Below, in pieces: positions 10,891 through 36,790 of a stretch of DNA of 64,000 nucleotides. Under the pieces are notes generated by a model. It had not been told where the DNA came from, searched no databases, and was given only the letters and a program-made list of their open reading frames with translations. Source of the stretch: Trueperaceae bacterium (lineage in GTDB: Bacteria > Deinococcota > Deinococci > Deinococcales > Trueperaceae); contig CBDCDZ010000004.1 of the NCBI GenBank assembly GCA_965215565.1, positions 800,001-864,000 of the forward strand, in the 5' to 3' direction. The translations under genes were made by a program, and so were the position numbers. The first letter of the stretch is position 1. Every line of letters starts with the position of its first letter.

Positions 10891-10898
10891 ACTTCGGA

Positions 10899-10966
10899 TG
10901 TAGCGAGGGAATAAAGTCCGATACACGGGAATAAAGTCCGATACAAAGTAAAAAAGTCCAATACGG
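10899..10966 (+). repeat. Tn7-like end with three contiguous TnsB sites (right-end type)
   Basis: 8-bp terminus, then 20-bp units at 10907, 10927 and 10947 (GGGAATAAAGTCCGATACA-like). Confidence 0.92.
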
Positions 10967-11168: not shown

Positions 11169-14100
11169 ATGAATGTGGACGAAACCAGAATAGTTAATCT
11201 GAAACCAGCCATTGATCAAATTAGGCAACGGCTCCATAGCGGGCAGGCGGCAGCTATGGTCGGAGCTGGCTTCAGCCTCAACGCCACAAAGAAATCAAAG
11301 GATGCCCCGAAGTTTCCGCTATGGAGCGACTTAACGGATCAAATTTTCCATCAGGTATATCCAGATTTTCCTAAAGACAACGACCATTTGAGCCACGAAC
11401 AGATCGCGTCCAAAGCGCGAAAGACATCTGATTTCTTGAGGCTCGCCCAAGACTTTGAGAATAACGATAGAAGTAAGTTAGATGCATTTCTCGAAAAAGC
11501 TATACCTGACAGAGACTACAACCCGGGAGAGCTACATAAGCAACTCCTGAACTTGCCCTGGGCTGACATCTTCACGACAAACCAGGATACGTTGCTCGAG
11601 AGAACCACTGGCTTCATTCAGCGGTATTACAGCGAAGTTTTGTCAGAAAAAGCCTTATCTTCTGCCGCACCCCCGCGAATTGTCAAGTTGCACGGAACTC
11701 TAGGGCACAACAATTATATCTTCACGGAACGCGACTTCGACAACTATCCTACCCACCATGAAGCGTTCGTCAGCTACGTCCAGACTTCACGGGCGATCAA
11801 TACGTTTTGCCTTTTTGGTTTTTCTGGTGATGACCCTAACTTCAAGAAGTGGAACAATTGGGTCTTGAATGTTATGGCAAATCACGCACCTCAGGTGTAC
11901 CTCATCGGCCTTCTTAACCTAAGTAAACAGGATAAAAATTACTGGCGAGACAGGAAAGTCGTTCCAATAGACCTCTCAGTCCTTTTCCAGCCAGGACAAA
12001 AGCCAGACCATGCGCTTGCCCTCGAATGGTTTCTAAACGAACTCCGAGACGAAAAGGGAGGGTCAGTCGTTGAAAAAGACGGCACGGAAGAAAGCGAAGA
12101 TGATGCGCCACTTCTCTCTTGGCCTAATGTACCGGGAGCGGCCAACACTAGACTTTACATGCCTGAGCCTTACGGAAAGGACCTGACGCATGATCAGCTA
12201 AAGGAGATTGCATTGCACTGGCGTAAGCAGCGGTTGTCCTATCCCGGCTGGCTCATTACTCCGCGTGCAAATAGAGAAAATTTGTGGTCTCTAACAGAGA
12301 TGTGGGTTGATCCAGTCTTCCAAGCTGCGCAAGATATGGATGTATCCGAAGCTATCTTAGTGCTTCATGAACTGTGCTGGCGTATTCGTCAATCGCTATT
12401 CCCTTTTCTTATCGATCATGCCAAAATCATTGCTGACAGGCTCGAAACTCTTAATCCGTTTCCTGATAACCCTGAATTAAGCGGCTCTGAAGTTGTACGC
12501 GGCAACGAAGCATTTGCTGAGCTGGACTGGAAGGTGTTGGAAGAGGCTTGGCTCGAGCTTGCTTTCGTGGTGGCGCAAGAGGCTAGAGAGGACCTAGACG
12601 AGCAGAGATTCACTGTATGGATGACAAGATTGGAGAGCGTCATCCCTAAAAATGGCGACTGGTATCACCGTTGGCACCACGAACAATGCTTAATGGCGCT
12701 CTATAAGTTAAACCAGAACAGCCTCGAGCAGCATCTAGGTGAATGGATCGTTCCCGAAGCAGATTTCGTTTGGTCACTCAGGAAGTCTGCCCTCTATGCT
12801 GAGCTAGGGCAAATCAAAACGGCAACGAAGTCTTTGGAGAAGAGCCTAACGACAATTGAAGAGGCCAATGAGAAGGAAGAAGACATACACATAGGACTTC
12901 TTTCTGCGGAAAGTTGGACACTATTCGCCCTCAACGGTATAAAACGGGCTGAAAGAATTTTTCCTAATGACACAGAGTGGCAATATAAATATTCCGCTCG
13001 CCGAGAAGCACTCAAAGCGTACAGATGCGACCCCGGTGACGAGATAGATTTCCTAAGCCAAAAGGTAAGCGGCCTGCTCCCTCAGGAGAAACCAGAAGAG
13101 ACCATCAAGCATGAATTTGACCCTGGAAGGGTGACAACGACAAAGCACTTCGGACATCCATCGTCTATCGTAGATAGGCGTCACGCCTTTGCGCTGCTAA
13201 CCCTACCTGAGCACGCTGGTATTCCTGTGCGCAGCGGCAGCGTGCGGTTTTTGAAGAATGCAGAGCAAGCGGCACAGTGGATTTGGCCTTCTGCCCCTTT
13301 GTGGGCGTTAAGTGCATATATCCGTAATGGTTACGACCACAATAAGCGGGTTGATCAGTGGCTTACACGGGTTGAGGTTGCGGGTATAGCGCAAGGTGTC
13401 GCTGATGCCAGCTTCCGCATGTTCGTCCCTGCACTAAAGCAAGTGATAAGATTATTGCCTACCGAACCGCCGAGACGGAGCAGCTTTTCAGAAGAGATAG
13501 TTGTCGCCCTTGGGGAAGTGCTTTCTCGCTTAACGGTCCTCTTCTCTCCGCAGCAACTTGAAGAGCTTTTGGATGTCACTTTAGCGATGTACGAGAGCCC
13601 GGCGTTCCAAAAGGATTTTCGCCTTTACAGTGTAGTTGAGAAGTTTTTAAGGCGTGTCTTGCTAGCCCTCCCGAATACCGAACTTACCCAGCGCCTACCG
13701 GAAATTCTAAGCCTCACCTTTCCTGGAGATAAACACTCCCTAGTTGACGACATGGCGTCAGGAAACTGGCCCGAGCCCGTCAATTACATCCAATGGGATT
13801 TGCTAAATGAAGAGCTCATTGATAAGAAGGGTTCCGAGTGGGTTAGCGTGATAAGCAAGCTCACGACTGACGTTGAACATGGGTCTTCTCAAGTTAGGTC
13901 TCGAGTGGCGAGCAGGTTAGAGAAGCTTTCAAGTGCAAACCTATTGACCTCCGACCAGAAACAAGCCTTTGGCAAAGCGCTCTGGTCAAGGACATACGAG
14001 ACCCTAGACCTTCCTTCAGAAACGGAGTTCACCCCTTACGGTTTTATGGTCCTGCCAGCTCCCGAGCCCAGACGCGCAGTTGAAAGCCTGCGCTCCTACA

Positions 14101-15101
14101 TAAAGGACAACGATTTCCCTCGACTCTTCTCCTATGAGGAACCTAAAGCATCTCCCGTTAGTCATTTGACAAGGGAGGGCAAACCCGACCTCTACTACAG
14201 CCGTAACCGTAAAACAGAGAATCTCATCAATGCTTGGAAATATGCTTCAAAACGTCCCATAGATACTCTCGTGAGAAAAGATGCTTACCTTATCGAATGG
14301 TCGCCTGAGGAAGCCAGCGAACTCTTCGATAAGATTCTCACCTGGTGGCGGTGCGAAAAAGATGACGTTTTAGAAGCGAAGGTAAAAATCGCTTTTAAAG
14401 ACGAAATTCAGAATAGGATTCATGAGGTTCTTTATATCGTCGGGCATACGATTCTTCCACATTTCAAGGCGAGTGAAGAGAGCGAGAAAAGCAAGGTTTT
14501 CGACTTTTTAGAGGACCTGGAGAATTCTGATTTCGTTGTTCTCTCACCTCTGCCGATGACACTCTATCTAAACAGTTCGAAAGAGCGGCAAAGGCAATTA
14601 ACAGACAAACTCCGTAGGGGTATTCATAGCCAAGCTAAAGAAGAAGTCAGTGAAGCTCTGCAAAGTACGATGGATTGGTTAGCCTACGCCGCACTTGGTG
14701 AGCTTCCCGAAGCACCCCAGACTGTCCTCGAAGACGTCGCTCTAAAATTGGTTGCTCGGCGTGGACCTAAGCTTCGGTCTACAATTCAGATACTGACTTG
14801 GATTATCAGATTTGTCCCGCAAGTTCTAGGTGAGGTTTCGCTGAGATACATTCTCATTGCCCTTCAGTTTTTGCTCGAGGAGACGACAACCGCGCACGAG
14901 ATAAAATCAGCTCACACCCCTATTTCGGCTGAAGAGATACCTCACCTCCGAGTAGAGGCGGCTAAATTAGCGAGTGAGCTTTACCGCTATTACGGCGAGT
15001 GTGGAAGAGAAATGCCTGAGATACTGCAAGAGTGGCAGCAGATATCTTTTGAGGACCCACTTCCAGAAGTAAGAAAAGCTTTTTCTACGACTCAGAACTA
15101 G
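11169..15101 (+). CDS. SIR2-domain defence protein (Dsr1-like defence-associated sirtuin)
   Basis: N-terminal SIR2-like motifs VGAGFS, FTTNQD, KLHG, FGFSGDDPNF followed by about 1000 aa of probably helical sequence; AT-richer than the host genes. Confidence 0.8.
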   Translation: MNVDETRIVNLKPAIDQIRQRLHSGQAAAMVGAGFSLNATKKSKDAPKFPLWSDLTDQIFHQVYPDFPKDNDHLSHEQIASKARKTSDFLRLAQDFENNDRSKLDAFLEKAIPDRDYNPGELHKQLLNLPWADIFTTNQDTLLERTTGFIQRYYSEVLSEKALSSAAPPRIVKLHGTLGHNNYIFTERDFDNYPTHHEAFVSYVQTSRAINTFCLFGFSGDDPNFKKWNNWVLNVMANHAPQVYLIGLLNLSKQDKNYWRDRKVVPIDLSVLFQPGQKPDHALALEWFLNELRDEKGGSVVEKDGTEESEDDAPLLSWPNVPGAANTRLYMPEPYGKDLTHDQLKEIALHWRKQRLSYPGWLITPRANRENLWSLTEMWVDPVFQAAQDMDVSEAILVLHELCWRIRQSLFPFLIDHAKIIADRLETLNPFPDNPELSGSEVVRGNEAFAELDWKVLEEAWLELAFVVAQEAREDLDEQRFTVWMTRLESVIPKNGDWYHRWHHEQCLMALYKLNQNSLEQHLGEWIVPEADFVWSLRKSALYAELGQIKTATKSLEKSLTTIEEANEKEEDIHIGLLSAESWTLFALNGIKRAERIFPNDTEWQYKYSARREALKAYRCDPGDEIDFLSQKVSGLLPQEKPEETIKHEFDPGRVTTTKHFGHPSSIVDRRHAFALLTLPEHAGIPVRSGSVRFLKNAEQAAQWIWPSAPLWALSAYIRNGYDHNKRVDQWLTRVEVAGIAQGVADASFRMFVPALKQVIRLLPTEPPRRSSFSEEIVVALGEVLSRLTVLFSPQQLEELLDVTLAMYESPAFQKDFRLYSVVEKFLRRVLLALPNTELTQRLPEILSLTFPGDKHSLVDDMASGNWPEPVNYIQWDLLNEELIDKKGSEWVSVISKLTTDVEHGSSQVRSRVASRLEKLSSANLLTSDQKQAFGKALWSRTYETLDLPSETEFTPYGFMVLPAPEPRRAVESLRSYIKDNDFPRLFSYEEPKASPVSHLTREGKPDLYYSRNRKTENLINAWKYASKRPIDTLVRKDAYLIEWSPEEASELFDKILTWWRCEKDDVLEAKVKIAFKDEIQNRIHEVLYIVGHTILPHFKASEESEKSKVFDFLEDLENSDFVVLSPLPMTLYLNSSKERQRQLTDKLRRGIHSQAKEEVSEALQSTMDWLAYAALGELPEAPQTVLEDVALKLVARRGPKLRSTIQILTWIIRFVPQVLGEVSLRYILIALQFLLEETTTAHEIKSAHTPISAEEIPHLRVEAAKLASELYRYYGECGREMPEILQEWQQISFEDPLPEVRKAFSTTQN

Positions 15102-15107
15102 CGAGGG

Positions 15108-17651
15108 TCAAGCGAGAAGGCGGTGCACCACCGCATCGAGCAACTGCTCCGCGTCCCCCTGCGCCCGCTTTAGCCCCTCCTCCAGCGCGTCAATCAGCCC
15201 CATAAGCTCATCCACCTTAGCAACGATGCGTTTTTGTTCGTTGAGGGGCGGGAGAGGAAATACAAAGTTTTTTATGGACTTAACACCTACGTTTGCCTGA
15301 GTGGTTTTATTAGGCTCTGTTGAAATTCTTCAGTACTAGTTGTTAGAAAAGGGCATGAGCGACGTAAGAATCAAGGCTAAGCAGTGGACTAAAATCAAGG
15401 CATTCTTAGATGAGAACCCGCAGGTGTATGTAGGACAGGAGAAGCAGTGCCGTAAATTTGTTGAAGGGGTACTGTGGATGTTGCGTTCGGGTGCACAGTG
15501 GCGACTTCTCCCCCCGAGGTATGGCAATTGGAACAGTGTGTATAAGCGTTTTGACAGATGGAGTGAACGAGGCATCTGGAAGGAAATGTTTGAGCACTTT
15601 GCTGATGATCCCGATATGGAAAGTGTGATGATGGACGGCAGTGTCGTGCGAGCCCATGCGTGTTCGGCAGGTGCGCCCCATAAAAAAGGGGTCAAGAAGA
15701 ACAACACCTCGGCTATAGTCGCGGCGGGTTCAGTAGCAAGATACACGTCTTAGTCGATGCTTTAGGCAATCCGTTGCGGCTCTTACTCAGTGCCGGACAA
15801 GCGCACGAAGCGCCTTATGCCAAAGCCTTACTCGCAGACTATGAGGTTGAATTTGTGTTTGGTGACAAAGCCTATGACGCTGAAGCTATCCTCACGACTA
15901 TCGCTGAGATGGACGCCGAAGCGGTCATTCCACCCAAAAGCAACCGCAAAGAGCAGCGCGATTATGACGAAGAACTGTACAAAGAGCGTCACCTAGTTGA
16001 ATGCTTTTTCAACAAGCTCAAGCAGTATAGGCGCTGCTTCTCACGCTTCGATAAGTTCGCTCGTAACTACCTCGGCTTCTTACACTTCGCCTCGGCTCTC
16101 ATCTGGTTGCGGTGAAATGTCAACACAACCTAGTATATCTTGCGATCTCATTTTTTACAAGTCCAGACAACGAATAAAAGTAGATATATCTTGGCTCTAC
16201 GTGTCCCTTTAAGTTCTTGACAACTGCGCACGAGTAAGACGCAAGAAAGTCTATATCCGTTTCAACGAGTCCATTCTCTCCAATAGTGCCATAACGGGGG
16301 AAATGATGTCATCTCTCTTAGGCTGTATCTTACGACTCAACCGCTCAAAGTCGGTATTAGAAATTTTCTTTGCTGTTGAAAAGTTGATCTCGTTGTCCCC
16401 CGTAAAATCTCGAGGAGATACATAAGGTACGCCTTCTCTTACCTCTTCCGGCATCTTATGATCTACATCTCCTATTTGAAGCGAAACTTCATCCCATCTA
16501 CACCAGCGCCAAGTATTTGGTATTCGTATGGAAGTTTCGTCAGAACTAACTGGAGTTAAACCCTTTGTTTTTCGTATCTTTCCCTCTTCAACTAATTTTG
16601 CTTTCTCAGCTTCTATGCTCTCGAGCAACACTCCCGCCGGTTCATCCTCCGGGTCTTGGGGCACGAGCTTCCCCTGCACCGCCAGTTGCAACACCGCCTT
16701 GCGCAACGCCGCGACGCCCCCCGGCGCAGCGCACAAGAGGTCGAAGTTGTCCCGCACGCGCCGCCAGCTCCCCGCAAACGTATCCGCGTCCTCTGCGCTC
16801 AGGAGAGAGCTTAGCGCCGCGCCGCCGAACCTCATGCGGGCGTCCCTTTTGGCGCGTCCTTGCGCCTCGAGCCTGTCTATAAGCCCCATAAGCTCGTCCA
16901 CTTTGGCGACGATGCGTTTTTGTTCCTCGAGGGGTGGGAGGGGGAACAGAAGTGTATTTAGCTTGCCCTGATAAATCGCTGCAACATTAGTCGTATTTGA
17001 TTTGAGAAGGTCTAGTAGACTTTTACCCGAGGGAGACTGAAACCAGAGATTAGCAAAAGCATTATTAACACCCGGTCCGAAAATAACTTTAAGAATATTG
17101 TTGTTGAACAGCCAAATTTCTCCTGTCGGATTGAGAAATACACACGTTTTACCTACCAGCTCGAAGCTATTTCTCGTGTTGAAAAGAAAATCACCTTCAG
17201 ATAACTTGTACTTCTCAAGCTCTTCCTGGCTGGCATCGACTTTGGTAATGTCGCTAAAATCACACAACCCTGTTGTAGAAATATTGTTCATTTTGAAATA
17301 TGGGTAGTTGTTGCTTTCAGATTGTAAACGTTTTGCGCGTTCTAAGCCTGTGTGAGAATCGAGTTTTATAGATTCGAAATCTACCCAAACCCAAGATTGT
17401 GGAAGACAGAATGGACCATCAACCGACTCTGGAGTGAATAACTTTGATTTCCGAATCTGCTTATTCTGTATCTGGTTATATTTCTCTAACGTTAGTTTGC
17501 GAACTAACGCTGAGGCAGACTCATCACTCGGGTCTTGTTCGACTAACTTCCCCTGCACCGCAAGCTGCAACACCAGCTCGCGCAGCTTCTTGGCGGCGTT
17601 GGGCGCGTCGGTCAAGAGGTCGAAGTGGCGCTCTAAGGTCTCAGGCGTCAT
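15108..17651 (-). pseudogene. hsdS: Type I RM specificity subunit, disrupted in TRD2 by a 1-nt deletion (about 16300) and an IS insertion
   Basis: LQLAVQGKLV twice and PLPPLxEQKRIVAKVDELM twice; the 3' piece at 15108-15312 rejoins in frame when the IS and one TA are removed. Confidence 0.9.
15313..16130 (+). mobile_element. IS5-family (IS427-like) insertion sequence, 818 bp, copy 1
   Basis: IRs GGCTCTGTTGAAATT / AATGTCAACACAACC, TA duplication; orfA 15355-15753 and orfB ending 16115 joined by an AAAAAAGGGG slippery site; YKERHLVECFFNKLK motif. Confidence 0.93.
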
Positions 17652-18006
17652 CGTCAGCGCGTCCTTCTTCAGTTTGGTCTAACGCGCTTTGCAGCTCGGG
17701 CAAGAGCACAGGGATTTCGTTCTCGACCACATCCCACACGGTCTCCAAGCGGATGCCGAAGTAGTGGTGCGCCAGCACGTCACGAAACCGCGCTAGGCTG
17801 CGCCAGGGGATAGCGGGGTGCTGCTCGCGCACCTCGGCGGGGATGTTTTTGGCAGCTTCCCCCATGATTTGCAGGTTGTGAAGGGTCGCGTCTATGACCT
17901 GTTCGTCGCCTCGGAACCTCTCAAAGTCGTAGCCCTGAGTATAGCGCTGTACCTTTTGCGCTGCGCCCCGCATGTCCTCCAAAAAGAGGCGGGTGCTACG
18001 CGGCAT
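17641..18006 (-). CDS. HEPN (DUF86/HepT-like) RNase toxin
   Basis: IMGEAAK...IPWRSLARFRDVLAHHY containing the RX4H motif. Confidence 0.9.
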   Translation of the reverse strand: MPRSTRLFLEDMRGAAQKVQRYTQGYDFERFRGDEQVIDATLHNLQIMGEAAKNIPAEVREQHPAIPWRSLARFRDVLAHHYFGIRLETVWDVVENEIPVLLPELQSALDQTEEGRADDDA

Positions 18007-18307
18007 GGATGGTCAGTAAGTCCTGCTGTACCTCTTCGGTGACGTGAGGGTTCAGCGTGCCTTGCGTCGCCAAGTCCACCTTGCAGCCTAAGAGGTCTTC
18101 CAGGTAGAGCAGTGCGCCCGTGTACTGCCGAAAGGTCGGAGCGCTGCCGAAGTCCGCCAAGAGGTCTACGTCGCTCTCGGCGCTGCGCTGGTCTCTAGCG
18201 GTTGAGCCGAAGAGCGACAAGCTGCGAACGCCGTAGCGGGATTCTAGGACGTTAAGGTGTTCGCGCAGCGTTTGGATGATGTGTTCGCGCTTTAGCTCAC
18301 CTGTCAT
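17996..18307 (-). CDS. Minimal nucleotidyltransferase (MNT) antitoxin
   Basis: LFGSTARDQRSAESDVD (GSX10DXD), KVDL; overlaps the HEPN gene. Confidence 0.9.
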   Translation of the reverse strand: MTGELKREHIIQTLREHLNVLESRYGVRSLSLFGSTARDQRSAESDVDLLADFGSAPTFRQYTGALLYLEDLLGCKVDLATQGTLNPHVTEEVQQDLLTIHAA

Positions 18308-18536
18308 AATTTGTGCGGCGCTCCATCCCCCTTAGCAGTTCCTTCTGCGCCTTCGGGTCGTGCATAGGCTCCGCGAACGCTTCCCAGAGGGCGATGGTCT
18401 CTTCGATGCGTTGCGCCTCTGTATTCTGGTCTATGTCCTGACCCGCTTCGATGTCTTCCAATGCAGCGGCGAGTCTGAAAAGGGCACTATCGTCAAGCTG
18501 GTCTATCTTTCTGCGTAACTGTTCTCTCACGGTCAT
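18297..18536 (-). CDS. Small hypothetical protein (79 aa), overlapping hsdM and the MNT gene
   Basis: Overlaps both neighbours; helical, antitoxin-like composition. Confidence 0.65.
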   Translation of the reverse strand: MTVREQLRRKIDQLDDSALFRLAAALEDIEAGQDIDQNTEAQRIEETIALWEAFAEPMHDPKAQKELLRGMERRTNYDR

Positions 18537-20002
18537 AACGCTACCTCTTCACCCTCCATCTTACCCGCTTCGGGCTCCAACGCCGCCATCAGCTCCCGTT
18601 TAAGCGCGTCCCGCGTCTCAGCGAGGTCGGCTAAGTGGGCTTGATACTCCGCTAAGAGGTCGTCGGGGTCGCCTAGAGCTTCCTCAACCGTATGCGGGTT
18701 CTTGATGTCCAGGTTGTAGCCGTTCGCCTTGATGTCCTCCACCGGAACGCGCCAGGCGTGGGCGTTCTCTTCGCGCTTATCCCACCACGCCTTCTCCGGG
18801 GCAAACTCGTCAATACGCATCGGCTTGGTCTTGGAGTACGACTTATAGCCCTTGGGGTAGGGGTGCTCGTAGTACCAGACCTCTTTCGTGGGTCTGCCTT
18901 TGGTGAAGAAGAGCAGGTTCGTCTTGATGCCCGTGTAGGGGTTGAAGACGCCATTGGGCAACCTCACGATGGTGTGCAGGTCGCACTCGTCCAAAAGCCG
19001 CTCTTTGATGCGCGTCTTGACGCCCTCACCGAAGAGTGTGCCGTCTGGCAAGACGAGCGCGGCGCGTCCGCCAGGTTTCAAGAGGTGCATGATGAGGACT
19101 AAGAAGAGGTCCGCCGTCTCGCGGGTGCGGTAGGTCGCGGGGAAGTTCTGCTCGATGCCGTCTTCCTCGGTGCCGCCGAAGGGTGGGTTGGTGAGCACCA
19201 CGTCTACGCGCTCGCTCGGGGCATAGTCGCGCAGAGGACGGGCTAAGGTATTGTCGTGACGAACTGAAGAGGGCACGTCAACGCCGTGCAAGAGCATGTT
19301 CGTCACGCAGAGCATGTGCGGAAGTTGCTTCTTCTCGACGCCGTGAATGGAGGCTTGTAGGGTCTCCCTATCTTCTGGTGTTTGGACGTAGGTGTCGCGC
19401 ACGTGCTCGAGCGCCGCCGTCAAGAAGCCGCCTGTACCGCACGCCGGGTCTAAGACCGTCTCGCCCAGCTTAGGGTCGGTCATGTCCACCATGAACTGTG
19501 TCACGGCTCGAGGTGTATAGAACTCACCCGCGTTGCCCGCGCTCTGCAAGTCTTTGAGGAGTTGTTCGTACAAATCGCCGAAGAGGTGCTGGTCTTTGGA
19601 GCTGTTAAAGTCGATCTCGTTCAGTTTATTGACCACTTGGCGAATCAGCGTACCGTTCTTCATGTAGTTGTAGGCGTCTTCGAAGACGCTACGGACGACG
19701 GTGGCTCGAGCGTCCCCGGCGGGCAAGTTCTTCAGCGCCGGGAAGAGGTCGGCGTTGACGAAGTCCAAGAGGGCGTCACCCGTGATGCCCTCGTCGTCGC
19801 TCGCCCAACTCTGCCAGCGCAGCCGCTCGGGGATGGGTGAGGTGTAGGCGTCGTCGAACATTTCGTGCTCTTGTTCGCGGTCGTCGAAAATTTTTAAGAA
19901 GAGCAGCCAGACGAGTTGGGAGATGCGCTGGGCGTCGCTATCTACCCCGGCGTCCCGGCGCATGATGTCTTGGATGCTTTTGACGGTGGTGCTGAGGGAC
20001 AT
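18533..20002 (-). CDS. hsdM: Type I RM N6-adenine methyltransferase
   Basis: GEFYTPR, DPACGTGGF, NPPFGG; resembles EcoAI/type IB subunits. Confidence 0.96.
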   Translation of the reverse strand: MSLSTTVKSIQDIMRRDAGVDSDAQRISQLVWLLFLKIFDDREQEHEMFDDAYTSPIPERLRWQSWASDDEGITGDALLDFVNADLFPALKNLPAGDARATVVRSVFEDAYNYMKNGTLIRQVVNKLNEIDFNSSKDQHLFGDLYEQLLKDLQSAGNAGEFYTPRAVTQFMVDMTDPKLGETVLDPACGTGGFLTAALEHVRDTYVQTPEDRETLQASIHGVEKKQLPHMLCVTNMLLHGVDVPSSVRHDNTLARPLRDYAPSERVDVVLTNPPFGGTEEDGIEQNFPATYRTRETADLFLVLIMHLLKPGGRAALVLPDGTLFGEGVKTRIKERLLDECDLHTIVRLPNGVFNPYTGIKTNLLFFTKGRPTKEVWYYEHPYPKGYKSYSKTKPMRIDEFAPEKAWWDKREENAHAWRVPVEDIKANGYNLDIKNPHTVEEALGDPDDLLAEYQAHLADLAETRDALKRELMAALEPEAGKMEGEEVAL

Positions 20003-20097
20003 GGGGTATCTTATAACGTGGGCTCGAGGTATGATCGCGACTTCTTTTTGTAGTGTGAAAGCGCTTGCTGGCTCACGTATAATTGAACCTATCTGCT

Positions 20098-23000
20098 ATG
20101 GACGGCTCTTTAGATCAACTTGTCAACTTCCCTCCCGAAGTGCGCGAAGCGCTTCAAAACGGCGCTCTCAGTTTCGCAGTCAACGTTCTCAGTAATGACT
20201 ATGTGAAGCAGCGTGCGTACATGCAGGACGAAAGGCTCAAACGCCTCAAGTTTGAAGCGGTTCCTGGAGACTACGATATTGAACGCGGCGTCCGAAAGGC
20301 TCAACTTTGGGCTACCTATAAGGTTGCTAGACATGCCGCAGAGACAGAGCCTCGTCACCAAGACTACTTCAACGGCATTGCAGACATGCTCCGAAGCGAG
20401 ATAGATAAGGTTGATAGAGACGACTATACCTTTACGAACATGCCGAGCCTCGACAAAGGAGAGATCAAGAAACTTCTACCTGGCGTCAGTATCGGTGAAG
20501 ATGAATTAGGCTGGCGACTCAAACTCACCACGTTGGCTGAACTCAAACAACGTTTTGGTTCAGAGCAAGCATTTGATACCTTGCAGCGACTTCTTCTCGG
20601 CGGATGGCAGGAGGGGGAACGTTCATTCGATTGGTTCGGTACTTTTTCAACATACTTTGCTGAGGAACGCAAAGACAATCCTGATCTAAGAGCCGCATTC
20701 GATGGATATGTATTAACCGAGATGGCGAATCAGCTCGAGCTAAACCATAGAGATGTACTCGCTCGATTAGAAGGAATCACCGACCGCTTAGCGCAAGTTA
20801 TACGGGAAGACGGTGCATCAACTCGCGCCGAGCTAAAACGCACTGCCGAGGGTGTAGGTACGCTTCTCGAGCAATCAAAGCCGAACGAGTGGTTTTTACC
20901 CCCCGGTGCATTGACGCCTGACGCCTCTCACCTCCCCCGGATTAAATCTGATTTCGTTTTTCCCCTTTCGCTAGGGGTTGAGGAAACGAATCACTCTACC
21001 CGCGATGGTGTCCAAATACTAACTGAAACTCGTACGTACGGCGAAAGCAGGGAGTTATACCGGAGGCGGCGCGTTCCCAAGCTCGCTGACACTTTTTTAG
21101 GTGAATGGGCAAGACAGCCGGGGTTATATGTAGTCACTGGAGAGCCAGGTGGTGGTAAGACCACGCTGCTAGGGTACTGGGCTAAAGAGCTGCATCAAAC
21201 TTATTTAGAAGATGACTCTCGAGCTTTCCCCCTCTATGTTTCCCTGCGGGAAATGCGTGGCACTGATAAAACTATTCTTCACGACCAGGGGGTACAACGG
21301 TACTTCAATCGTAAAGGATTGTGGGGCTACGAGATAGATGTGAGTCCTTACTGGAGCGGCGAGCGCAGAGCAATTTGGCTTCTTGACGGTTGGGATGAGC
21401 TAGAACCAACCGAGCAGGAAGATTGGCTAACTATCGCACGGTCGCTAAAAGGAACTGTGATTGTTAGCTGCCGAGCAGCCCAGTACCAAGGCAACTTAGG
21501 TCCTGACCACCTCATTATAGGGCTGAGCAAAGAGGAACAAGCGCGGTTCCTCAAAGGGCTCATACCTTCTCTTCGTATAGAAGACTCTACCGCCTACGCT
21601 AACGCTGACACAAGCTGGCGTGACGAGTTACTAGGCGAGGTTGAAAAACACCATCATCTACGCGAATTAGCTAGTAACCCCTTGCTACTTACTTTGATTG
21701 CACGGACGAATCCACCCGGCAAGGTTCAATTGCCTAGAAACCGAGAAGCATTCTACGGAGAAACGTTCGACTATATAGTGAAGCGACGCTTACCCGACCT
21801 AAATTATCGGGAGAAGCGCGACCTCAAAGCTGCACTCAAAGCAGTTGCAAGCCGGGCGCAGCTTGACCTTGTGATCAGTGAAGATGTTTTCTGGTCAGCG
21901 CTTGATGAGGTAAATGCATCTTCAAAAGTCGAGGAGCGGGCAAAAAGTTGCGGTATTCTTCAACCTAAAGGTAGCGGATACGAGTTTCTACACGCTACTT
22001 TTCAAGAATGGTTTTTAGCCCAAACCCTAGCCCAAAGTGGCGCATTAGTTGATGCTTTAGAAGCTCATTGGCGGAAGCCGAATTATGAGGAAACGTTAGC
22101 GCTCTTGTGGAGTATGGAAGCACCAGATGAGCGCTTCGCTGCCACAAAGTTTTTGCTTAACGTAGGGTGCCAATCTCAGGTCAATCAAGGTGAAGAAACA
22201 CAAGGTAAATATAAACGTAGTGGTATACGTACAGCTTTACACCTATGGCACCGAAGCGGGCTTCCCGTCGAGTCAAAGAGTCTGGAGCAGCTTTGGAACG
22301 AATTGCTAAGTAGTAATACTCCCAACAATCTTCGCGTCCTTGCAGCGGCAAGAAATGATAGGACACCCGTCGAAATACTCAAGCTAATGAAAGATAAGGT
22401 TGAGGAAGTGCGTTTGGATGTCGCTAGCAACCCAAACGCTACCGAGATGATGTTGTTAGAGCTAATGAAAGATGAGATCGCGATGGTGCGTCGGCGTGTC
22501 GCTAGCAATTCAAACGCCACTGAGCTGATGCTATTAGAGCTAATGAATGATAAGGATATGATGGTGCGTCGGCGTGTCGCCAGCAACTCAAATGCCACCG
22601 AACCTATACTGCTTGAGCTTATGAAAGATGAAAATGGAGGGGTGCGCCAGTATGTTGCCAGTAACCCAAACGCTACCGAGGCGGTGCTGTTAGAGTTGAC
22701 GAAAGATAAGGATAAACACGTACGTCAGAATACAGCCAGCAATCCAAACGCTACCGAGGTGGTGCTGTTAGAGCTGATGAATGATGAGGATGTGATGGTG
22801 CGTTGGCATGTTGATCGCAATCCAAACGCCACCGAATCTATGCTGCGTGAGCTTGTGGAAGACGGAGGAGTGCATTGGAGTATAGCCCGCAATCCAAACG
22901 CCGCCGAAGCAGTTCTGCTTGAGCTAATGAATGATGAGGATAAGCATATACATCGGAATGTCGCCCGCAACTCAACTACCACCGAGGCAGTGCTGTTAAA

Positions 23001-23310
23001 GCTGATAAAAGATAAGGACAAATATGTACGTCGGGGTGTCGCCCGCAACCCAAATGCTACCGAGACAGTTCTACTTGAGCTAATGAATGATGAGGATGAA
23101 TATGTGCGTCAGAACGTCGCCAGCAACTCGAACGCCACCGAGGTGGTGCTATTAGAGTTGACGAAAGATAAGGATACGATGGTGCGTCGGAATGTCGTCA
23201 GCAACCCAACCACTACCGAGGCAGTGCTGATCAAACTAACAAGAGATGAGAATAAGCATGTGCGAGAAGCTGTGGCTACTAATCTAAACACCTGCCTCGA
23301 GTGGCTCTAA
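20098..23310 (+). CDS. NACHT/STAND NTPase with C-terminal 26-aa LRV/HEAT-like repeats
   Basis: GEPGGGKTT, WLLDGWDE, VSCR, NPLLLTL, FLHATFQEW; about 12-13 repeats of VRxxVASNPNATExxLLELMxD. Start may be 20083. Confidence 0.88.
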   Translation: MDGSLDQLVNFPPEVREALQNGALSFAVNVLSNDYVKQRAYMQDERLKRLKFEAVPGDYDIERGVRKAQLWATYKVARHAAETEPRHQDYFNGIADMLRSEIDKVDRDDYTFTNMPSLDKGEIKKLLPGVSIGEDELGWRLKLTTLAELKQRFGSEQAFDTLQRLLLGGWQEGERSFDWFGTFSTYFAEERKDNPDLRAAFDGYVLTEMANQLELNHRDVLARLEGITDRLAQVIREDGASTRAELKRTAEGVGTLLEQSKPNEWFLPPGALTPDASHLPRIKSDFVFPLSLGVEETNHSTRDGVQILTETRTYGESRELYRRRRVPKLADTFLGEWARQPGLYVVTGEPGGGKTTLLGYWAKELHQTYLEDDSRAFPLYVSLREMRGTDKTILHDQGVQRYFNRKGLWGYEIDVSPYWSGERRAIWLLDGWDELEPTEQEDWLTIARSLKGTVIVSCRAAQYQGNLGPDHLIIGLSKEEQARFLKGLIPSLRIEDSTAYANADTSWRDELLGEVEKHHHLRELASNPLLLTLIARTNPPGKVQLPRNREAFYGETFDYIVKRRLPDLNYREKRDLKAALKAVASRAQLDLVISEDVFWSALDEVNASSKVEERAKSCGILQPKGSGYEFLHATFQEWFLAQTLAQSGALVDALEAHWRKPNYEETLALLWSMEAPDERFAATKFLLNVGCQSQVNQGEETQGKYKRSGIRTALHLWHRSGLPVESKSLEQLWNELLSSNTPNNLRVLAAARNDRTPVEILKLMKDKVEEVRLDVASNPNATEMMLLELMKDEIAMVRRRVASNSNATELMLLELMNDKDMMVRRRVASNSNATEPILLELMKDENGGVRQYVASNPNATEAVLLELTKDKDKHVRQNTASNPNATEVVLLELMNDEDVMVRWHVDRNPNATESMLRELVEDGGVHWSIARNPNAAEAVLLELMNDEDKHIHRNVARNSTTTEAVLLKLIKDKDKYVRRGVARNPNATETVLLELMNDEDEYVRQNVASNSNATEVVLLELTKDKDTMVRRNVVSNPTTTEAVLIKLTRDENKHVREAVATNLNTCLEWL
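22408..23290 (+). repeat. Coding tandem repeat array, about 78-bp period, about 12 units
   Basis: Recurring GTCGCyAGCAAyyCAAAyGCyACCGAG..GCTGTTAGAGCTrATGAA units within the NACHT gene. Confidence 0.85.
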
Positions 23311-23342
23311 CCCCATCTAATTTACCAGCGCACTTAACATCT

Positions 23343-25691
23343 CTAAGCCGCGTAAAGCTCCATCTCCAATCCCTGCAACGCCGCCAAATACTGCTGCTTC
23401 CCCCCAAAGTGCTTGATAAGCTCAACAGGCGACCCCAACGCACTAATCGGCTGCACCTTGAGCACACTGAAGTCTTCAATGCTCTCAATCCCAGCGTCCG
23501 CATACTTCTCCAAAAGCGCGTCCAACACCTTCCGCGCCTCTTCGCTGTACGACGAGAAGTACCCCCGTTTGCGGACACTCTCCGCCCGCTCACGCCGCGT
23601 CAAGGGCGGCTGGTCGTAGACGATATGGCAGATGAGGTCGAAGGGGTCGTAGTCCTTGCCGACCTTCTTCTGAAGCTCTTCGAATAGGATGCCCTGCTCT
23701 TCTAGCTCAGCGATGATGGCGTGTTTCTGCTCGGTGCGCGTCCAGGACTGTAAGAAGGACTCCAAGGTGCTGTACTCGCGCCTCACCGCCTTGCGGGTGT
23801 AGTCGGTGAGCGACTCGGTGATGAGCTTGCCGCCCGGTCCGTAATACTGCACGCGCTCGGCGATGACGGACACGTCGATGTCACGCACCGTGTACTTCCT
23901 GCGCCGTTCACCCTCGCCGATGGAGAAGGCGATGTCGGGCTCGAGTTCCTGCGCTTCCTCGCCCTGGTCTTCATCCTCGGGCGGTACAGGCGACTCGTCC
24001 GTCTCAGGCTCGTAAATCTGCACGGGCTCCCCGTCGAAGTCGGGGTCGGCGAAGAGTTCGGTCGCCTTCTTGAAGTCCATGATGGTGAAGAACTGTTTGC
24101 CGTAGTCCTCGGCGACCCGCGTGCCTCGTCCGATAATCTGCTTGAACTCGGTCATGGAGTTGATGCGCCTGTCTAAGACGATGAGCTTGCAGGTCTGCGC
24201 GTCTACTCCGGTAGTCATGAGCTTGGAGGTCGTGACGATGACCGGGTAGGGCTCCCAGGGCAAGATGAAGTTGTCCAGCTCGGCTTTCCCCTCGGCGTCG
24301 TCCCCGGTGATGCGCATGACGTACTTGTAGTTCTCGGCGACCTTATCCATGTTCTCGTTGATAAGCGCTTGACGCATCCTGCGGGCGTGGTCGATGTCCT
24401 CGCAGAAGACGATGGTCTTACCCATGCGGTCGGTTTGTCTGAGGTAGTCCGAGACCTTCTTGGCGACGAGGCGGGTGCGGGGCTCTAAAACGAGGTTTCG
24501 GTCGTAGTCCATCTGGTTGTAGATGCGGTCCTCTATTTCCACGCCGTAGGAGTCGCGCTGCCCCGCCTCGGGTCGCCAGCCCGTAAGGTCCTTGTCGATG
24601 TCGATACGCACGACCTTGTAGGGCGCTAAGAAGCCGTCGTTGATGCCCTCTTTGAGCGAGTAGGTGTAGACGGGCTCGCCGAAGTAGTGGATGTTCGATA
24701 CGTCTGCCGTCTCTTTGGGTGTCGCCGTCAAGCCTATCTGCGTCGCCCCGGAGAAATACGCCAAGATTCTGCGCCAGTTCGAGTTCTCCTTAGCACTCCC
24801 TCGGTGGCACTCGTCAATCACGATGAGGTCGAAGAAGTCGGGGGAGAACTGCGTGTAGATGTCGGCGTCGATCTCGTTGCCCGTCACCGCTTGGTAGAGC
24901 GAGAGGTAAATCTCGTAGCTCTTGTCCACCGTGCGGTTGCTGATCTTCGTCATCGCCCCGCCGAAGGGCTTGAAGTCGTTCGTCTTGGCTTGGTCTACCA
25001 AGATGTTGCGGTCGGCGAGGAAGAGGATGCGCTTCTTCGTGCCTGACTTCCACAAGCGCCAGATGATTTGGAAGGCGGTGTAGGTCTTGCCCGTCCCTGT
25101 TGCCATGACGAGGAGGATGCGGTCTTGCCCTTTGGCGATGGCTTCGACGGTGCGGTTGATGGCTTTGACCTGGTAGTAGCGCGGCGCACGCCCCGAGCCG
25201 TCGTCGTAGTAGGGCTGCACGGCGACGCGCTCGACCTCAGTGTCCTCCAAGCCCTTCCAGGCTTTGTAGCGCCGCCAGAGTTCGTCGGGGGAGGGGAACT
25301 GCTCCAAGGTCAGCTCTTGCTCTGGTATAGCAGCATTACCCATGCGGTCATGGAAGATGAACCCATCGCCGTTGGAAGTGAAGATGAAGAGTACGCCCAG
25401 CATCTCGCCGTATCTGAGGGCTTGCTGCATCCCGTCGCCTACACCGTGCGTGTTGTCCTTCGCTTCCACGATGGCGAGCGGGATGTTGGGGCTGTGGTAG
25501 AGGATGTAGTCGGCGCGTTTGGTCTCACCGCGCTTGGCGGTCTGTCCCCGCACGATGATGCGCCCTTTGGTAAACGTGACCTCTTCGCGTATTTGCGTCT
25601 GCACGTCCCAACCCGCCTGCTTGATAGCGGGGGTGATGTACTTGGTGCAGATGTCGCGTTCGGATAGGGCTTGTTTGTTGATGTGCGTCAC
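23343..25691 (-). CDS. hsdR: Type I restriction subunit R (EcoAI/EcoEI-like)
   Basis: [24 protein letters not shown] nuclease motif, [23 protein letters not shown]. Confidence 0.96.
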
Positions 25692-28911: not shown

Positions 28912-29790
28912 ATGCGGCCTCGCGCGGGTGCAAACCTCTACGGCAGGACCAGGGGCGTCATGCCACAAGGTAAGAAGCGTATGGATGCTGCAGAAGCGCA
29001 AGCAGCCCAGGATAAGGCGATTGCGAAGTGGCGTAAGACAGGCGATGGTCATGGTCAAAACTACGAACCGTGGCTCACCGTTAGAAGAGTGCCGTCGCAC
29101 GGCCGCGTCAGCCGGGTTCTTGGGCGAGTCACAGGCCGCGTGCACCACCTGATGAGCGACCTGGAGACGAACACGTTTTACGTCCTCGACGCTAGCGACA
29201 ACGTTCTCGACATCCGTGAGCAGTACCCCTTATTGCCGTTGGAGGAAACTCTCGAGATTGCAGAAGCCAACACCCTCAAGCATCCCAAACACCCCCGTTG
29301 GAAAGGACCAATTATCATGACGACTGATTTTCTAGTTACACGTGGCGGCGACCTCGGAGATTATCAGGAGGCGTGGTCCGTTAAGCCTTCGTCGGTGCTC
29401 AGTAACAAGCGAGCGCTCGAGAAACTTGAAATCGAAAGGCTGTTCTGGCAAGCTCGGTCAACACCTTGGTATCTGATTACAGAGCGTGAACTGCCCAAAG
29501 GACTGCTGCACAACCTGCGCTGGCTCGCCGCCGCGAGAGACCTGAGCGACTTCCACGTTCCTGCCGACAGGCTCGAGGGTGTACTAGACGAACTCTACCT
29601 CACAATCACTGTCTCCGACGAGCCGCTGGCTAGTTTGTGCAGCCAAATGGACGGGCGGCTCGGGTTACGTGCCGGGACGTCTCTGACAGCGGTGCGACAC
29701 GCTCTCGCGACGAAACGCTGGCACGTAGACCTCACGAAGGCGATTGACCCCGACCGGCCCTCACTGGGTCTCACCCGTATCGATGGATAA
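28912..29790 (+). CDS. tnsA: TnsA endonuclease
   Basis: GHGQNYEPWL, HHLMSDLE, DIREQYPLL, MTTDFL..SVKP, EKLEIER. Start may be 28960. Confidence 0.95.
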   Translation: MRPRAGANLYGRTRGVMPQGKKRMDAAEAQAAQDKAIAKWRKTGDGHGQNYEPWLTVRRVPSHGRVSRVLGRVTGRVHHLMSDLETNTFYVLDASDNVLDIREQYPLLPLEETLEIAEANTLKHPKHPRWKGPIIMTTDFLVTRGGDLGDYQEAWSVKPSSVLSNKRALEKLEIERLFWQARSTPWYLITERELPKGLLHNLRWLAAARDLSDFHVPADRLEGVLDELYLTITVSDEPLASLCSQMDGRLGLRAGTSLTAVRHALATKRWHVDLTKAIDPDRPSLGLTRIDG

Positions 29791-32116
29791 ACCCACTCTG
29801 TCGCCCTCGGTGAACGCCGGAACGAACGACCTTCCCGCAAAGCGCGATATCTTCGCGCTTAACGCCCTTTTCTATATCGTCGATCTCTCTCCCCCCGAAA
29901 AGGATAAGGAAAAGGAACACAAGTTCCAGCGTCTGCTCTGGGCAGTCCCGGATACCGAGCAACTGGTTATGATCGACGTGCCGACCACGAGCCCACCCTT
30001 CTGGATAACACGCAGCGCCCTGCTCTACGAACTCGACGAAGGCAACCTGGTGCTCCAAATGCAGGACCCGTTCGCGCCCCCATCTGTGCAGGAGGAGGAC
30101 CTCACGGAGAAAGAGCGCAACATCCGGGACCGCCGCTGGGCGCTTATCGAGCCACTCGTCACCGACGCGAAGCGCCGAATTTTCTATCCCGAGCACAGCG
30201 GGGCGCTCATCGCCGAGGCGAGTCGGGCGGGCAAAACCTGTCGCACCAACATGCACAAGTTCCTTCGCCTCTACTGGCAGGGCGGGCAGGTGCCAAACGC
30301 CCTCTTACCAGCATTTCACCGATGCGGTGGTCGGGGAAAGCCTAAGACGATTGACGAGGACAAACGAGGCCGACCGAGCAAATTGGCGTTGGTTGATGCG
30401 ACGCGCATCGGCATCAACATTACGAAGGAGCAAGCGGTAAAGTTGGTCGCAGGAGGGCGTAAGTTCATCGAAAAGATGGGTCTTTCGCAAAAGGCTGCCC
30501 ACCGCGAGACGATCCGCGTTTATTTTAGCGAGGGACTCGAGTGGCAAGACGGGAAGCTCGTCGCTATATTGCCAGAGGCGCACCTGCTGCCCACGTTCGA
30601 CCAGTTCATTTATCACTATGGAAAGGTGCGGTCCAACACGGACGCCGTGCGCATCCGTGTCGGGTCGAGGCGCTTCAACCTCCAACACCGGCCCGTGCTC
30701 GGTTCCTCAACAGATAACACGTTTGGTCCTGGTTCGGAGTACCAGGTTGACGCGACCGTCGGTGACCTTTACCTCCTGAGTAGGATTCTCAAGGGGCGCG
30801 TTATCGGGCGTCCTGTCATCTACCTCGTTATCGATAGCTTCTCTCGCATGGTCGTGGGCATCCATGTCGGTCTCGAGGGGCCGAGTTGGTTAGGTATGAT
30901 GCTCGCGCTCGAAAATGCCTTCACCGGCAAAGTGGATTTCTGCCGCCGCTTCGGGCGTGACATCACCGAGGACGAGTGGCCCTGTCATCACTTCCCCGAA
31001 ACCCTCTTAGGAGACCGCGGCGAGCTGATCAGCAAGCACGCGGATCAGCTTGTGAAAGCCTTCGGCATCCGCGTACCGAACACCGCGTCGTGGCGACCGG
31101 ACTGGAAACCCATCGTCGAGAGGAGCTTTCGGACGCTGAACGACGAGGTCATCGACTGGCAGCCCGGCGCGGTACATGAGGTGCGCGAGCGCGGCGAACC
31201 CGACTACCGGCTCGACGCGACCCTGACCCTCGAGGACTTCACCGAAATGCTGATCGTCCTTATCCTGCACTACAACCACAATCATTCCATCCAGGAGGAC
31301 ATGCTTCCCCTCGGGTTCCCCTACCCGGAGCACGGGAACCCGACGCCCATCGAGCTTTGGAACTGGGGCATCGAGCACCGGAGCGGATACCTGAGGATGG
31401 CGGACAGGACACGTGTACGCGCCAACCTCTTGCCCGCGAAGGAGGTCTCGGTGACGTCTCGCGGATTGAACTACCACGGCCAGCACTACGCGCCGCTCAG
31501 CCTCTTGGAGAATTACGGCGACGAGGACCCGGATGCGGCGCACTTCGAGAACTGGTTCCTGCGTAAGTTGGGGCGCAAGACCCGTAAGGTCGAACTCGCC
31601 GTCGATCCGCGTGACGTCTCTTTCGCCTATATCCGTCTCGAGCGTGGCCGCGTTCTCGTGCCCTGCGGCCTCCTGCGCGGCGACCGGCGCTTCGCCGGGA
31701 TGTCGTTCCAAGAGGTGATGGACGCGCGTGCTGTGAAAGCTATCAGCAACCAGGTGAATCAGACCGAAGTGCTCCGCGACTGGGCGGCGTTCCGCGCCGA
31801 GGTTGAGGCTATTGAAGAACGCGCCTGCAAGCAGCGGGACGACGCCTTGGGCAGCGCGAACACCCCTGCGAACGTCAAGAACATCCGCGAAACGCGCAGC
31901 GTCGAGCGGCGGGAGCTTCAGCGCGAAGGGGTCTGGTACTTGGGCGACGTCCCTCATACGGATGATGCCCCTGACGCAGCAGAAAACCCAGATCATCAAG
32001 CACCGTCGTCAGCGTCAGGCAGCGACGGTCAACAGGGCGGCTACGTCCCGCCGCCCTCGAACCTTGATTTGCTCACCGCCGCCAGAGCACGTAAGCAGGA
32101 AGAGGAGGCATCATGA
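29783..32116 (+). CDS. tnsB: TnsB DDE transposase
   Basis: GPGSEYQVDAT, GRPVIY..IDSFSR, LGDRGE, KPIVERSF; overlaps tnsA and tnsC. Confidence 0.95.
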   Translation: MDKPTLSPSVNAGTNDLPAKRDIFALNALFYIVDLSPPEKDKEKEHKFQRLLWAVPDTEQLVMIDVPTTSPPFWITRSALLYELDEGNLVLQMQDPFAPPSVQEEDLTEKERNIRDRRWALIEPLVTDAKRRIFYPEHSGALIAEASRAGKTCRTNMHKFLRLYWQGGQVPNALLPAFHRCGGRGKPKTIDEDKRGRPSKLALVDATRIGINITKEQAVKLVAGGRKFIEKMGLSQKAAHRETIRVYFSEGLEWQDGKLVAILPEAHLLPTFDQFIYHYGKVRSNTDAVRIRVGSRRFNLQHRPVLGSSTDNTFGPGSEYQVDATVGDLYLLSRILKGRVIGRPVIYLVIDSFSRMVVGIHVGLEGPSWLGMMLALENAFTGKVDFCRRFGRDITEDEWPCHHFPETLLGDRGELISKHADQLVKAFGIRVPNTASWRPDWKPIVERSFRTLNDEVIDWQPGAVHEVRERGEPDYRLDATLTLEDFTEMLIVLILHYNHNHSIQEDMLPLGFPYPEHGNPTPIELWNWGIEHRSGYLRMADRTRVRANLLPAKEVSVTSRGLNYHGQHYAPLSLLENYGDEDPDAAHFENWFLRKLGRKTRKVELAVDPRDVSFAYIRLERGRVLVPCGLLRGDRRFAGMSFQEVMDARAVKAISNQVNQTEVLRDWAAFRAEVEAIEERACKQRDDALGSANTPANVKNIRETRSVERRELQREGVWYLGDVPHTDDAPDAAENPDHQAPSSASGSDGQQGGYVPPPSNLDLLTAARARKQEEEAS

Positions 32117-36510: not shown

Positions 36511-36651
36511 TTGTATCGGACTTTATTGCATCAAGAGAGGGTCCAATCAGAGCTGGTAGGTGTTTTTGTATCGAACTTTTACTACAACTGGTGATCGAGA
36601 AAGGCCCGTTATATGCTTCCAATTTATATCGGACTTTATTCCCTTGCTACA
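36511..36651 (-). repeat. Tn7-like end with three spaced TnsB sites (left-end type)
   Basis: Sites at 36511, 36566 and 36624 (TTGTATCGGACTTTATT-like), ending GCTACA. Confidence 0.92.
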
Positions 36652-36726
36652 CTTCGGATTTGATGACGGGAGTCTTTGTTGAAGATTGTCAGTAGAACAT
36701 CATATATTGAGTAGGACTCCCGTCAG

Positions 36727-36759
36727 GTCGCACTAGCGGTGATTTACCGCTAGTGCGAC
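36727..36759. terminator. Perfect 14-bp stem hairpin (terminator-like)
   Basis: GTCGCACTAGCGGT-GATTT-ACCGCTAGTGCGAC followed by T-rich sequence; preceded by IR TGACGGGAGTC..GACTCCCGTCA (36664-36725). Confidence 0.55.
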
Positions 36760-36790
36760 TAAGTTTTGAGTTTCTTGGTAGGCTTGCTTC

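Follow-up and report, generated by a model that had tools for sequence, protein, structure and literature searches.

The window analyzed here, a 64,000-nucleotide stretch from a Trueperaceae bacterium (assembly GCA_965215565.1, contig CBDCDZ010000004.1, forward-strand positions 800,001 to 864,000), carries within a type I restriction-modification (RM) locus a gene for an NLR-like protein that joins an unnamed helical N-terminal domain to a NACHT module and an array of LRV-type repeats. By analogy with characterized bacterial NACHT (bNACHT) proteins, we favor with modest confidence the interpretation that this is a stand-alone, one-gene anti-phage receptor that would act independently of the RM system through an unnamed, probably non-enzymatic effector. 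The first-pass annotation of this DNA had likewise proposed an uncharacterized NLR-like defense receptor, a proposal for which the NACHT signature and the defense cargo of the surrounding Tn7-like element argue.

The gene is a single long open reading frame (ORF) encoding 1070 amino acids (20098..23310, forward strand). It occupies the gap between hsdM (18533..20002, identified by library matches) and hsdR (23343..25691, EcoAI/FtnUII family by NCBIfam), both on the reverse strand, and is therefore antisense to both; it is divergent from hsdM across 95 nt and convergent on hsdR across 32 nt. An alternative TTG start at 20083 would give 1075 amino acids, but the ATG at 20098 is likelier to be the start because the ortholog P0003 also opens with MDGSL. 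Contigs from runs X1 and X2, both of which may represent the source sample, cover the whole ORF with 0 differences. The X1 contigs align to it without gaps, and an assembly error behind this ORF, or behind the hsdS frameshift described below, is rejected for this sample. GC content at third codon positions is 0.485, compared with 0.84 for hsdR and 0.79 for hsdM, and resembles the values for the Dsr2-like gene (0.51) and hsdS (0.52) of the same element. A promoter scan of the locus found 4 sites where 3.4 would be expected, and no terminators; we give it no weight. Two full-length orthologs from ENA, P0003 and P0004, share 51% and 57% identity with the window protein; scanning metagenomes with an alignment of the full-length proteins added none from 181 candidates. 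In a Pfam scan the protein matches NACHT, LRV and HEAT. The first-pass annotation had described an antisense gene of about 1070 codons filling the gap, an intact NACHT module and 12-13 repeats of 26 amino acids still alike at the DNA level, and each of these descriptions holds. Its block of about 270 unassignable N-terminal residues likewise has no library name, but can be refined into segments of residues 1-56, 57-214 and 215-260 plus a linker to residue ~330.

By sequence, the protein belongs to the NACHT family. The NACHT module, including helical and winged-helix parts, spans residues ~331-745 (21088..22332, forward strand, as are all features of the gene given below), with a Pfam NACHT match (E 2.8e-8) that scores above the family cut-off. 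The Walker A motif GEPGGGKTT (residues 348-356, 21139..21165) has the form GxxGxGK[ST] and is unchanged in 3/3 orthologs; the Walker B motif WLLDGWDE (residues 427-434, 21376..21399) carries the D[GAS]hDE signature, and LLDGWDE is likewise found in 3/3 orthologs. Further intact motifs are SCR (457-459), NPLLL and FLHATFQEW. The last, which as [FY]LHATFQEW is conserved among the 3 orthologs and which we take to be the winged-helix motif that follows the NTPase, lies in a region where the structure model has low confidence. Section 6 of the bNACHT preprint gives D[GAS]hDE as the NACHT Walker B signature (10.1101/2022.07.19.500537). The tripartite layout of N-terminal effector, NACHT module and repeats is present in the window protein.

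The N-terminal region is built around an unnamed, almost wholly helical core at residues 57-214 (20266..20739), marked by the motifs D[LI]xRG[VI]RxA, EL..RF and F...K.N..L...F.G. Before it lie residues 1-56 (20098..20265), a set of variable, amphipathic to moderately hydrophobic helices of low model confidence that may serve as a switch or membrane segment. Behind it, residues 215-260 (20740..20877) form a long coiled helix or helical hairpin that is less conserved (28-41%), and a linker up to residue ~330 joins the helical region to the NACHT module. An AlphaFold model based on an 11-sequence alignment gives a helical core at residues 61-200 (pLDDT 65-94), a long helix beyond residue 195 and values under 50 for residues 1-56; the core is nearly all helix and has no beta core. 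Ortholog identity over residues 1-214 (59-61%) is on a par with that of the NACHT core (61-62%). The invariant columns are R66, L70, E148, L149, F187 and G203, few of them polar.

Naming this domain was attempted through library, PDB-sequence and fold searches, none of which gave an identity. Pfam, PADLOC and NCBIfam contained no family for it, and residues 1-267 matched 0 Pfam families at E<=1, NNH1-3 included. The NNH2 hidden Markov model (HMM) found 0 of 364 genomes, although it was silent in controls too, and the NNH1 and NNH3 HMMs found 0 matches in the genome that holds the window. A PDB sequence search with the domain alignment returned a single match at E 6.5. The Foldseek comparison that the first-pass annotation had recommended for this region found nothing at E<=0.001 in either PDB or BFVD, and VIA-align over 48,161 chains gave a best Z of 7.8 and none >=8, with matches that mostly concern the 204-260 hairpin and barely probe the core. 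A full-length model was poor outside the repeats, and a search with it returned HEAT solenoids for the most part, with NLRC4/NLRP chains as weak matches. In the literature we found no description of the domain or of a bacterial NACHT-LRV family, with the caveat that supplements may hold one.

Word-seeded searches, which covered proteins of 397 amino acids and longer and were limited to roughly 8,000 candidates, place the domain on at least 12 proteins with three types of STAND NTPase: NACHT, NB-ARC-like and NPHP3_N/AAA_16-like. It tops NB-ARC-like/TPR proteins in four further genomes of the same family, so that 5 of 364 Deinococcota genomes, our own included, carry it, all of them in one family. 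Three metagenome proteins (P0006, P0008 and P0009) also combine it with NB-ARC-like/TPR parts, and NPHP3_N/AAA_16-like STANDs in contig L014 and in a Salinibacter ruber plasmid start with it. Domain HMMs connect the groups: the NACHT-LRV model finds the TPR group at 28-63 bits, the reverse search gives 68-77 bits, and L014 scores 35-43 bits. Salinibacter is linked less strongly, by a tblastn match from L014 (E 4e-5), and neither group HMM reports it; the window domain used as a query found no match among the plasmids. The NTPase regions of these carriers share just short or weak BLAST matches, and because the NTPases are barely alike while the N-terminal domain is common to them, the domain has moved between STAND types. 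The Salinibacter STAND gene, which carries a distant copy of the domain and lies on plasmid pSR56 of strain M8 (L036:5935-8625), is missing from the plasmid gene table, crosses the record start and stands beside a DUF262 gene.

The predicted sensor is an array of 12-13 LRV/alphaRep-type repeats of 26 amino acids (22315..23307), made up of 11 complete units (one of 24 amino acids), a degenerate first unit and a cut last one. Pfam LRV matches at E 4.3e-15, and PDB matches to alphaRep proteins and 1lrv keep the VRxxAA helix register. In the DNA, Tandem Repeats Finder reports a period of 78 with 10.8 copies and 70% matches. Of 471 paired four-fold-degenerate third positions, 262 (56%) are identical, where the composition of the gene itself would predict 26%; the likeness of the DNA therefore exceeds what protein constraint alone would give, which indicates that units were recently copied from one another. 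Comparison between orthologs points the same way: same-position and all-against-all unit identities are nearly equal (0.353/0.357, 0.522/0.495 and 0.375/0.360), with the caveat that anchoring of P0003 is imperfect. We also built a tree of 29 units, those detected in the three proteins (10/13, 9/12 and 10/13), which omits mainly first, last and irregular units and retains two irregular ones. The nearest neighbor lies within the same protein for 20 of the 29, with 2 ties, and the tree requires 6 label changes against 14.0 in shuffles. P0004 holds identical units, and those of P0003 are diverged. Taken together, these observations support turnover of repeat sequences within each lineage, probably by recombination between repeats, and hence the recombination-variable sensor of the first-pass annotation, since the repeats cluster by protein and not by position. 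Diversity through change in repeat number, for which that annotation had proposed to check the homologs, is excluded by the 12-13 units in all three orthologs.

The variation falls on one face of the repeat. The highest-entropy columns are 18, 19, 26, 22 and 23, which border VR and VA (xx-VR-xx-VA-x), and these five align with the KDED-xx-VR-xx-AA-x helix of alphaRep proteins. Variable positions 18, 19, 22, 23, 26 and 30 make up the alphaRep binding surface (PMC3754942). We predict that the corresponding face binds a phage protein. The same genome also encodes, at G000:C4 ~1606060-1607400 on the reverse strand, a stand-alone protein of ~440 amino acids made of LRV-type repeats, clustered with genes that by eye look SWIM-like and MoxR-like.

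Characterized STANDs provide the model of a repeat sensor, an oligomerizing NTPase and an N-terminal effector (10.1101/2022.07.19.500537; PMC13581612), and the window protein probably works like an antigen-receptor bNACHT. In such a mechanism, the ADP-bound protein would be held closed by the repeat solenoid. A phage protein would bind the variable repeat-helix face (xx-VR-xx-VA-x), which inter-repeat recombination would re-diversify, and nucleotide exchange would then drive NACHT oligomerization. The clustered N-terminal helical domains would halt the infected cell, with an effector that would be self-sufficient and non-enzymatic. Release of the amphipathic first 55 residues against the membrane is the mode of action that we rate highest, though it is doubtful in itself and relies on uncontrolled amphipathicity scores.

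Genomic context could be counted for six relatives that carry the domain (those in G005, G066, G009, G024 and L014, and the Salinibacter gene); P0003, P0004, P0006, P0008 and P0009 lie outside this count. The scan covered 17 selected neighbors of five relatives and one of the Salinibacter gene, with no background rate. A PADLOC candidate-defense gene adjoins 3 of the 6: two Uma2 (PDC-S03) genes lie upstream in G005, a YhcG/DUF1016 (PDC-S02) gene downstream in G066, and a DUF262 gene upstream in Salinibacter. A ClpA match near the relatives was discounted as a defense candidate. The defense enrichment among homologs that the first-pass annotation had set as a test is thus present in half of the cases, but it is weak, the families concerned being common ones.

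Several observations weigh against a self-contained defense receptor. Besides the commonness of Uma2, YhcG and DUF262, the relatives in G009, G024 and L014 have no candidate-defense neighbor, the loci in G009 and G024 being truncated at contig ends, and the full-length orthologs P0003 and P0004 contribute no genomic context. The window protein matched 0 families of PADLOC 2.0 and NCBIfam at E<=0.01, and no named Avs; for P0003 and P0004, PADLOC gave 0 families at E<=1e-10. Resolution of the repeat tree is poor, with 1 of 23 branches well supported, and it is the sequence of the repeats that varies, their number being nearly constant. As for an effector that acts at membranes, none of the 19-residue windows in residues 1-300 is hydrophobic enough for a transmembrane segment (best 0.60), the amphipathicity scores of the first 55 residues were computed without a control, and no HeLo/MLKL/Bell-like fold appears among the listed matches, which residues 204-260 dominated. 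Finally, several genes of the surrounding Tn7-like element (hsdS and tnsC) are decaying.

One rival reading keeps the anti-phage sensor and makes the N-terminal domain an adaptor or autoinhibitory cap, of the NNH/EAD-like kind, that would recruit a separate effector, such as a host protein or the co-carried Dsr2 or HEPN protein. The helical domain shows no evident catalytic constellation among its invariant residues, the feature-space neighbors of the window and L014 domains in the Atlas are the NNH1/2/3 clusters (0.81-0.89, weak leads only), and adaptor types are among the bNACHT effectors listed in the preprint (10.1101/2022.07.19.500537). We nevertheless regard this as unlikely. The genome encodes the domain nowhere else as a stand-alone protein, and no partner gene common to the six relatives was seen. 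Because the domain is helical with few invariant polar residues, and because neither a stand-alone copy nor a common neighbor was found, we favor a self-sufficient, non-enzymatic effector.

The defense context of the gene comes from its position in a 25.75-kb Tn7-like element with termini TGT (10899) and ACA (36651). The left end (10899..10964, forward) consists of the TGT terminus and ~3 TnsB-type sites of 20 bp each, and the right end (36512..36651, reverse) of two such sites and the ACA terminus; the 20-bp repeat beside the ribonucleotide reductase stop reappears inverted at 36512 and 36625 (4 sites against 0.02 expected). The transposition genes tnsA, tnsB, tnsC and tniQ/tnsD lie at 28912..36477 on the forward strand, the identification of tnsB relying on its position and on a weak Mu-transposase match. 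A second IS5-type copy splits tnsC (33338-34160), and tniQ/tnsD seems to lie in two ORFs (34561-36477). Because of the interrupted tnsC and the apparently split tniQ/tnsD, the element is probably immobilized. Its left end sits 8 nt downstream of the stop codon of a gene for class II ribonucleotide reductase, a possible TnsD target. The flanks carry a 7-bp direct repeat, CTTCGGA (10892-10898 and 36652-36658), and not a 5-bp duplication; the target-site duplication of Tn7 is usually 5 bp. No empty insertion site was seen in G001 or G002. In the two same-genus genomes, different genes stand behind the corresponding ribonucleotide reductase.

The cargo comprises a Dsr2-like sirtuin, hsdS, an MNT-HEPN pair, hsdM, the NACHT-LRV gene, hsdR and helix-turn-helix regulators. 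The sirtuin, a Dsr2-like SIR2 defense gene (11169..15101, forward), matches PADLOC Dsr2 at E 3.8e-215; it scores half the NCBIfam equivalog cut-off and therefore appears to be a divergent member. A toxin-antitoxin pair of MNT (NTP_transf_2) and HepT-like genes lies between hsdM and hsdS (17641..18307, reverse). The hsdS gene (15111..17651, reverse) has a frameshift near 16302 and an IS5-type element at ~15311-16133; hsdM and hsdR, by contrast, remain intact. The truncated hsdS product of 466 amino acids retains one full recognition domain and might still function. Section 10 of a paper on Tn7-like elements lists RM systems, sirtuins and HEPN proteins among their cargo and expects unknown defense genes among the remainder (PMC8649781). 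A defense role assigned to the NACHT-LRV gene from this company would be one of guilt by association.

Another alternative is that the protein is a non-defense signaling STAND, or a passenger without a current role that occupies a neutral slot in a decaying transposon. Disruption of tnsC and hsdS fits this alternative, as does the finding that the TPR relatives in Trueperaceae mostly lie amid housekeeping or metabolic genes. However, the ORF is intact across 3.2 kb, all motifs are conserved in the three orthologs, the sensor face is diversifying, and the remaining identifiable non-regulatory cargo consists of defense genes, which makes this alternative rather improbable.

The slot itself (20003..23342) is not specific to the NACHT-LRV gene. 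In a contig from run X4, whose hsdM and hsdR are 93% and 95% identical to those of the window, a different 3,043 nt stands exactly between 20002 and 23345, and the same stretch measures 38 nt in a related X1 contig. We also surveyed 8 other EcoAI-type loci (all 4 genome matches and 4 of 53 plasmid matches): hsdR and hsdM are adjacent in 5, and 3 have unrelated inserts of 1.9-2.9 kb, all including opposite-strand genes. The hsdR-hsdM gap is a general, interchangeable insertion slot. The 3,043-nt cassette of X4 is itself a candidate defense gene, and in a related locus on X5 contig 25 the MNT region is joined straight to hsdR, without hsdM or an insert.

These observations bear on the suggestion of the first-pass annotation that the protein guards the RM system. 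PrrC is an RM-embedded backup system that guards type I RM, and the repeats could in the same way keep watch on Hsd subunits or on anti-restriction proteins of phages and set off a backup response. The gene does lie between hsdR and hsdM and has its 95-nt divergent region in common with hsdM. In addition, run X3 of a second study contains fragments that are 95-100% identical to the gene and to the hsd genes, one short contig spanning the hsdM start into the NACHT-LRV 5' end. Against this, near-identical or related operons carry a substitute cassette or 38 nt, inserts at the other EcoAI-type loci are unrelated and often antisense, hsdS is both frameshifted and split by an insertion sequence while the NLR gene is intact, and within the DNA examined 0 of the 6 domain relatives with context lies near a type I RM gene. 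With the slot swapped, hsdS broken twice and the relatives elsewhere, we consider guarding of the RM system very unlikely.

That the N-terminal domain is instead a cryptic enzyme of unrecognized fold (a nuclease, NADase or other) seems highly improbable: D60, R66 and E148 vary little or not at all, conservation equals that of the NTPase, and most characterized bNACHT effectors are enzymatic (10.1101/2022.07.19.500537), but the model is nearly all helix without a beta core, the Salinibacter protein, the most distant member, lacks R66 and E148-L149 in the alignment, and fold searches gave no enzyme match.

Comparison with known systems places the favored receptor in an architecture class that is already known. 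It resembles the antigen-receptor bNACHT type with HEAT repeats in the D[GAS]hDE module, winged-helix signature, layout and single-gene organization (10.1101/2022.07.19.500537), but differs in an N-terminal domain that fits no Pfam model, NNH1-3 included, and in a 26-amino-acid LRV-type array recently homogenized at the DNA level. With the Avs1-24 STANDs it has in common a STAND NTPase, a repeat sensor whose predicted ligand is a phage protein, and predicted N-terminal effector clustering; however, most Avs sensors are TPR-like, and the window protein matches no PADLOC 2023 Avs model (PMC13581612). The accessible supplement text of that report does not mention LRV, NNH, HEAT_2 or Truepera(ceae). 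Like PrrC, the protein is encoded inside a type I hsd locus, but it lacks the ABC-ATPase/HEPN anticodon-nuclease architecture and a conserved RM linkage, the slot being interchangeable. By the tests run, it is not a member of a named Avs, NNH or PrrC group. The repeats share with LRV (PDB 1lrv) and HEAT-like alphaRep proteins the KDED-xx-VR-xx-[AV]A-x register and variable positions on one helix face; whereas alphaRep proteins are engineered binders with 31-amino-acid units, the window units are natural, 26 amino acids long and placed behind a NACHT module. The element agrees with Tn7-like defense carriers in tnsABC plus tniQ/tnsD, in RM/sirtuin/HEPN cargo and in TnsB-site ends, but Table 1 there contains no NACHT proteins and the flanking repeat here is 7 bp (PMC8649781). 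What sets it apart is the unnamed mobile N-terminal domain and the alphaRep-like diversifying sensor, although the clade may be present in the bNACHT preprint supplements.

Conserved and mobile, yet matched by neither name nor fold, the N-terminal domain presents a concrete candidate for an effector of a new kind that arrests the cell. In the repeats, nature has an equivalent of the engineered alphaRep binders, and this sensor offers a tractable model for the evolution of receptor specificity, and other occupants of the exchangeable hsdR-hsdM slot are candidate new defense genes. More tentatively, these strands may belong together: residues 1-214 would be an immune effector of a new helical fold, swapped among NACHT, NB-ARC-like and NPHP3-like STANDs across phyla and killing non-enzymatically, wired here to a natural alphaRep-like sensor that repeat recombination continually re-diversifies, and the EcoAI-type hsdR-hsdM gap would be a hotspot for cassettes in which more unknown defense genes could be sought.

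Beyond the right end of the element (36652-39800) lie a 254-amino-acid ORF, remnants that resemble insertion sequences and a low-GC ORF of 321 amino acids, which by eye has a restriction-endonuclease-fold look and has no Pfam match at 1e-8. The ribonucleotide reductase beside the left end (6925-10890) contains a LAGLIDADG intein, apparently absent from the 879-amino-acid homolog in G024. A second, degraded tnsABC-tniQ cluster is present elsewhere in the same genome, at G000:C4:1896037-1900521.

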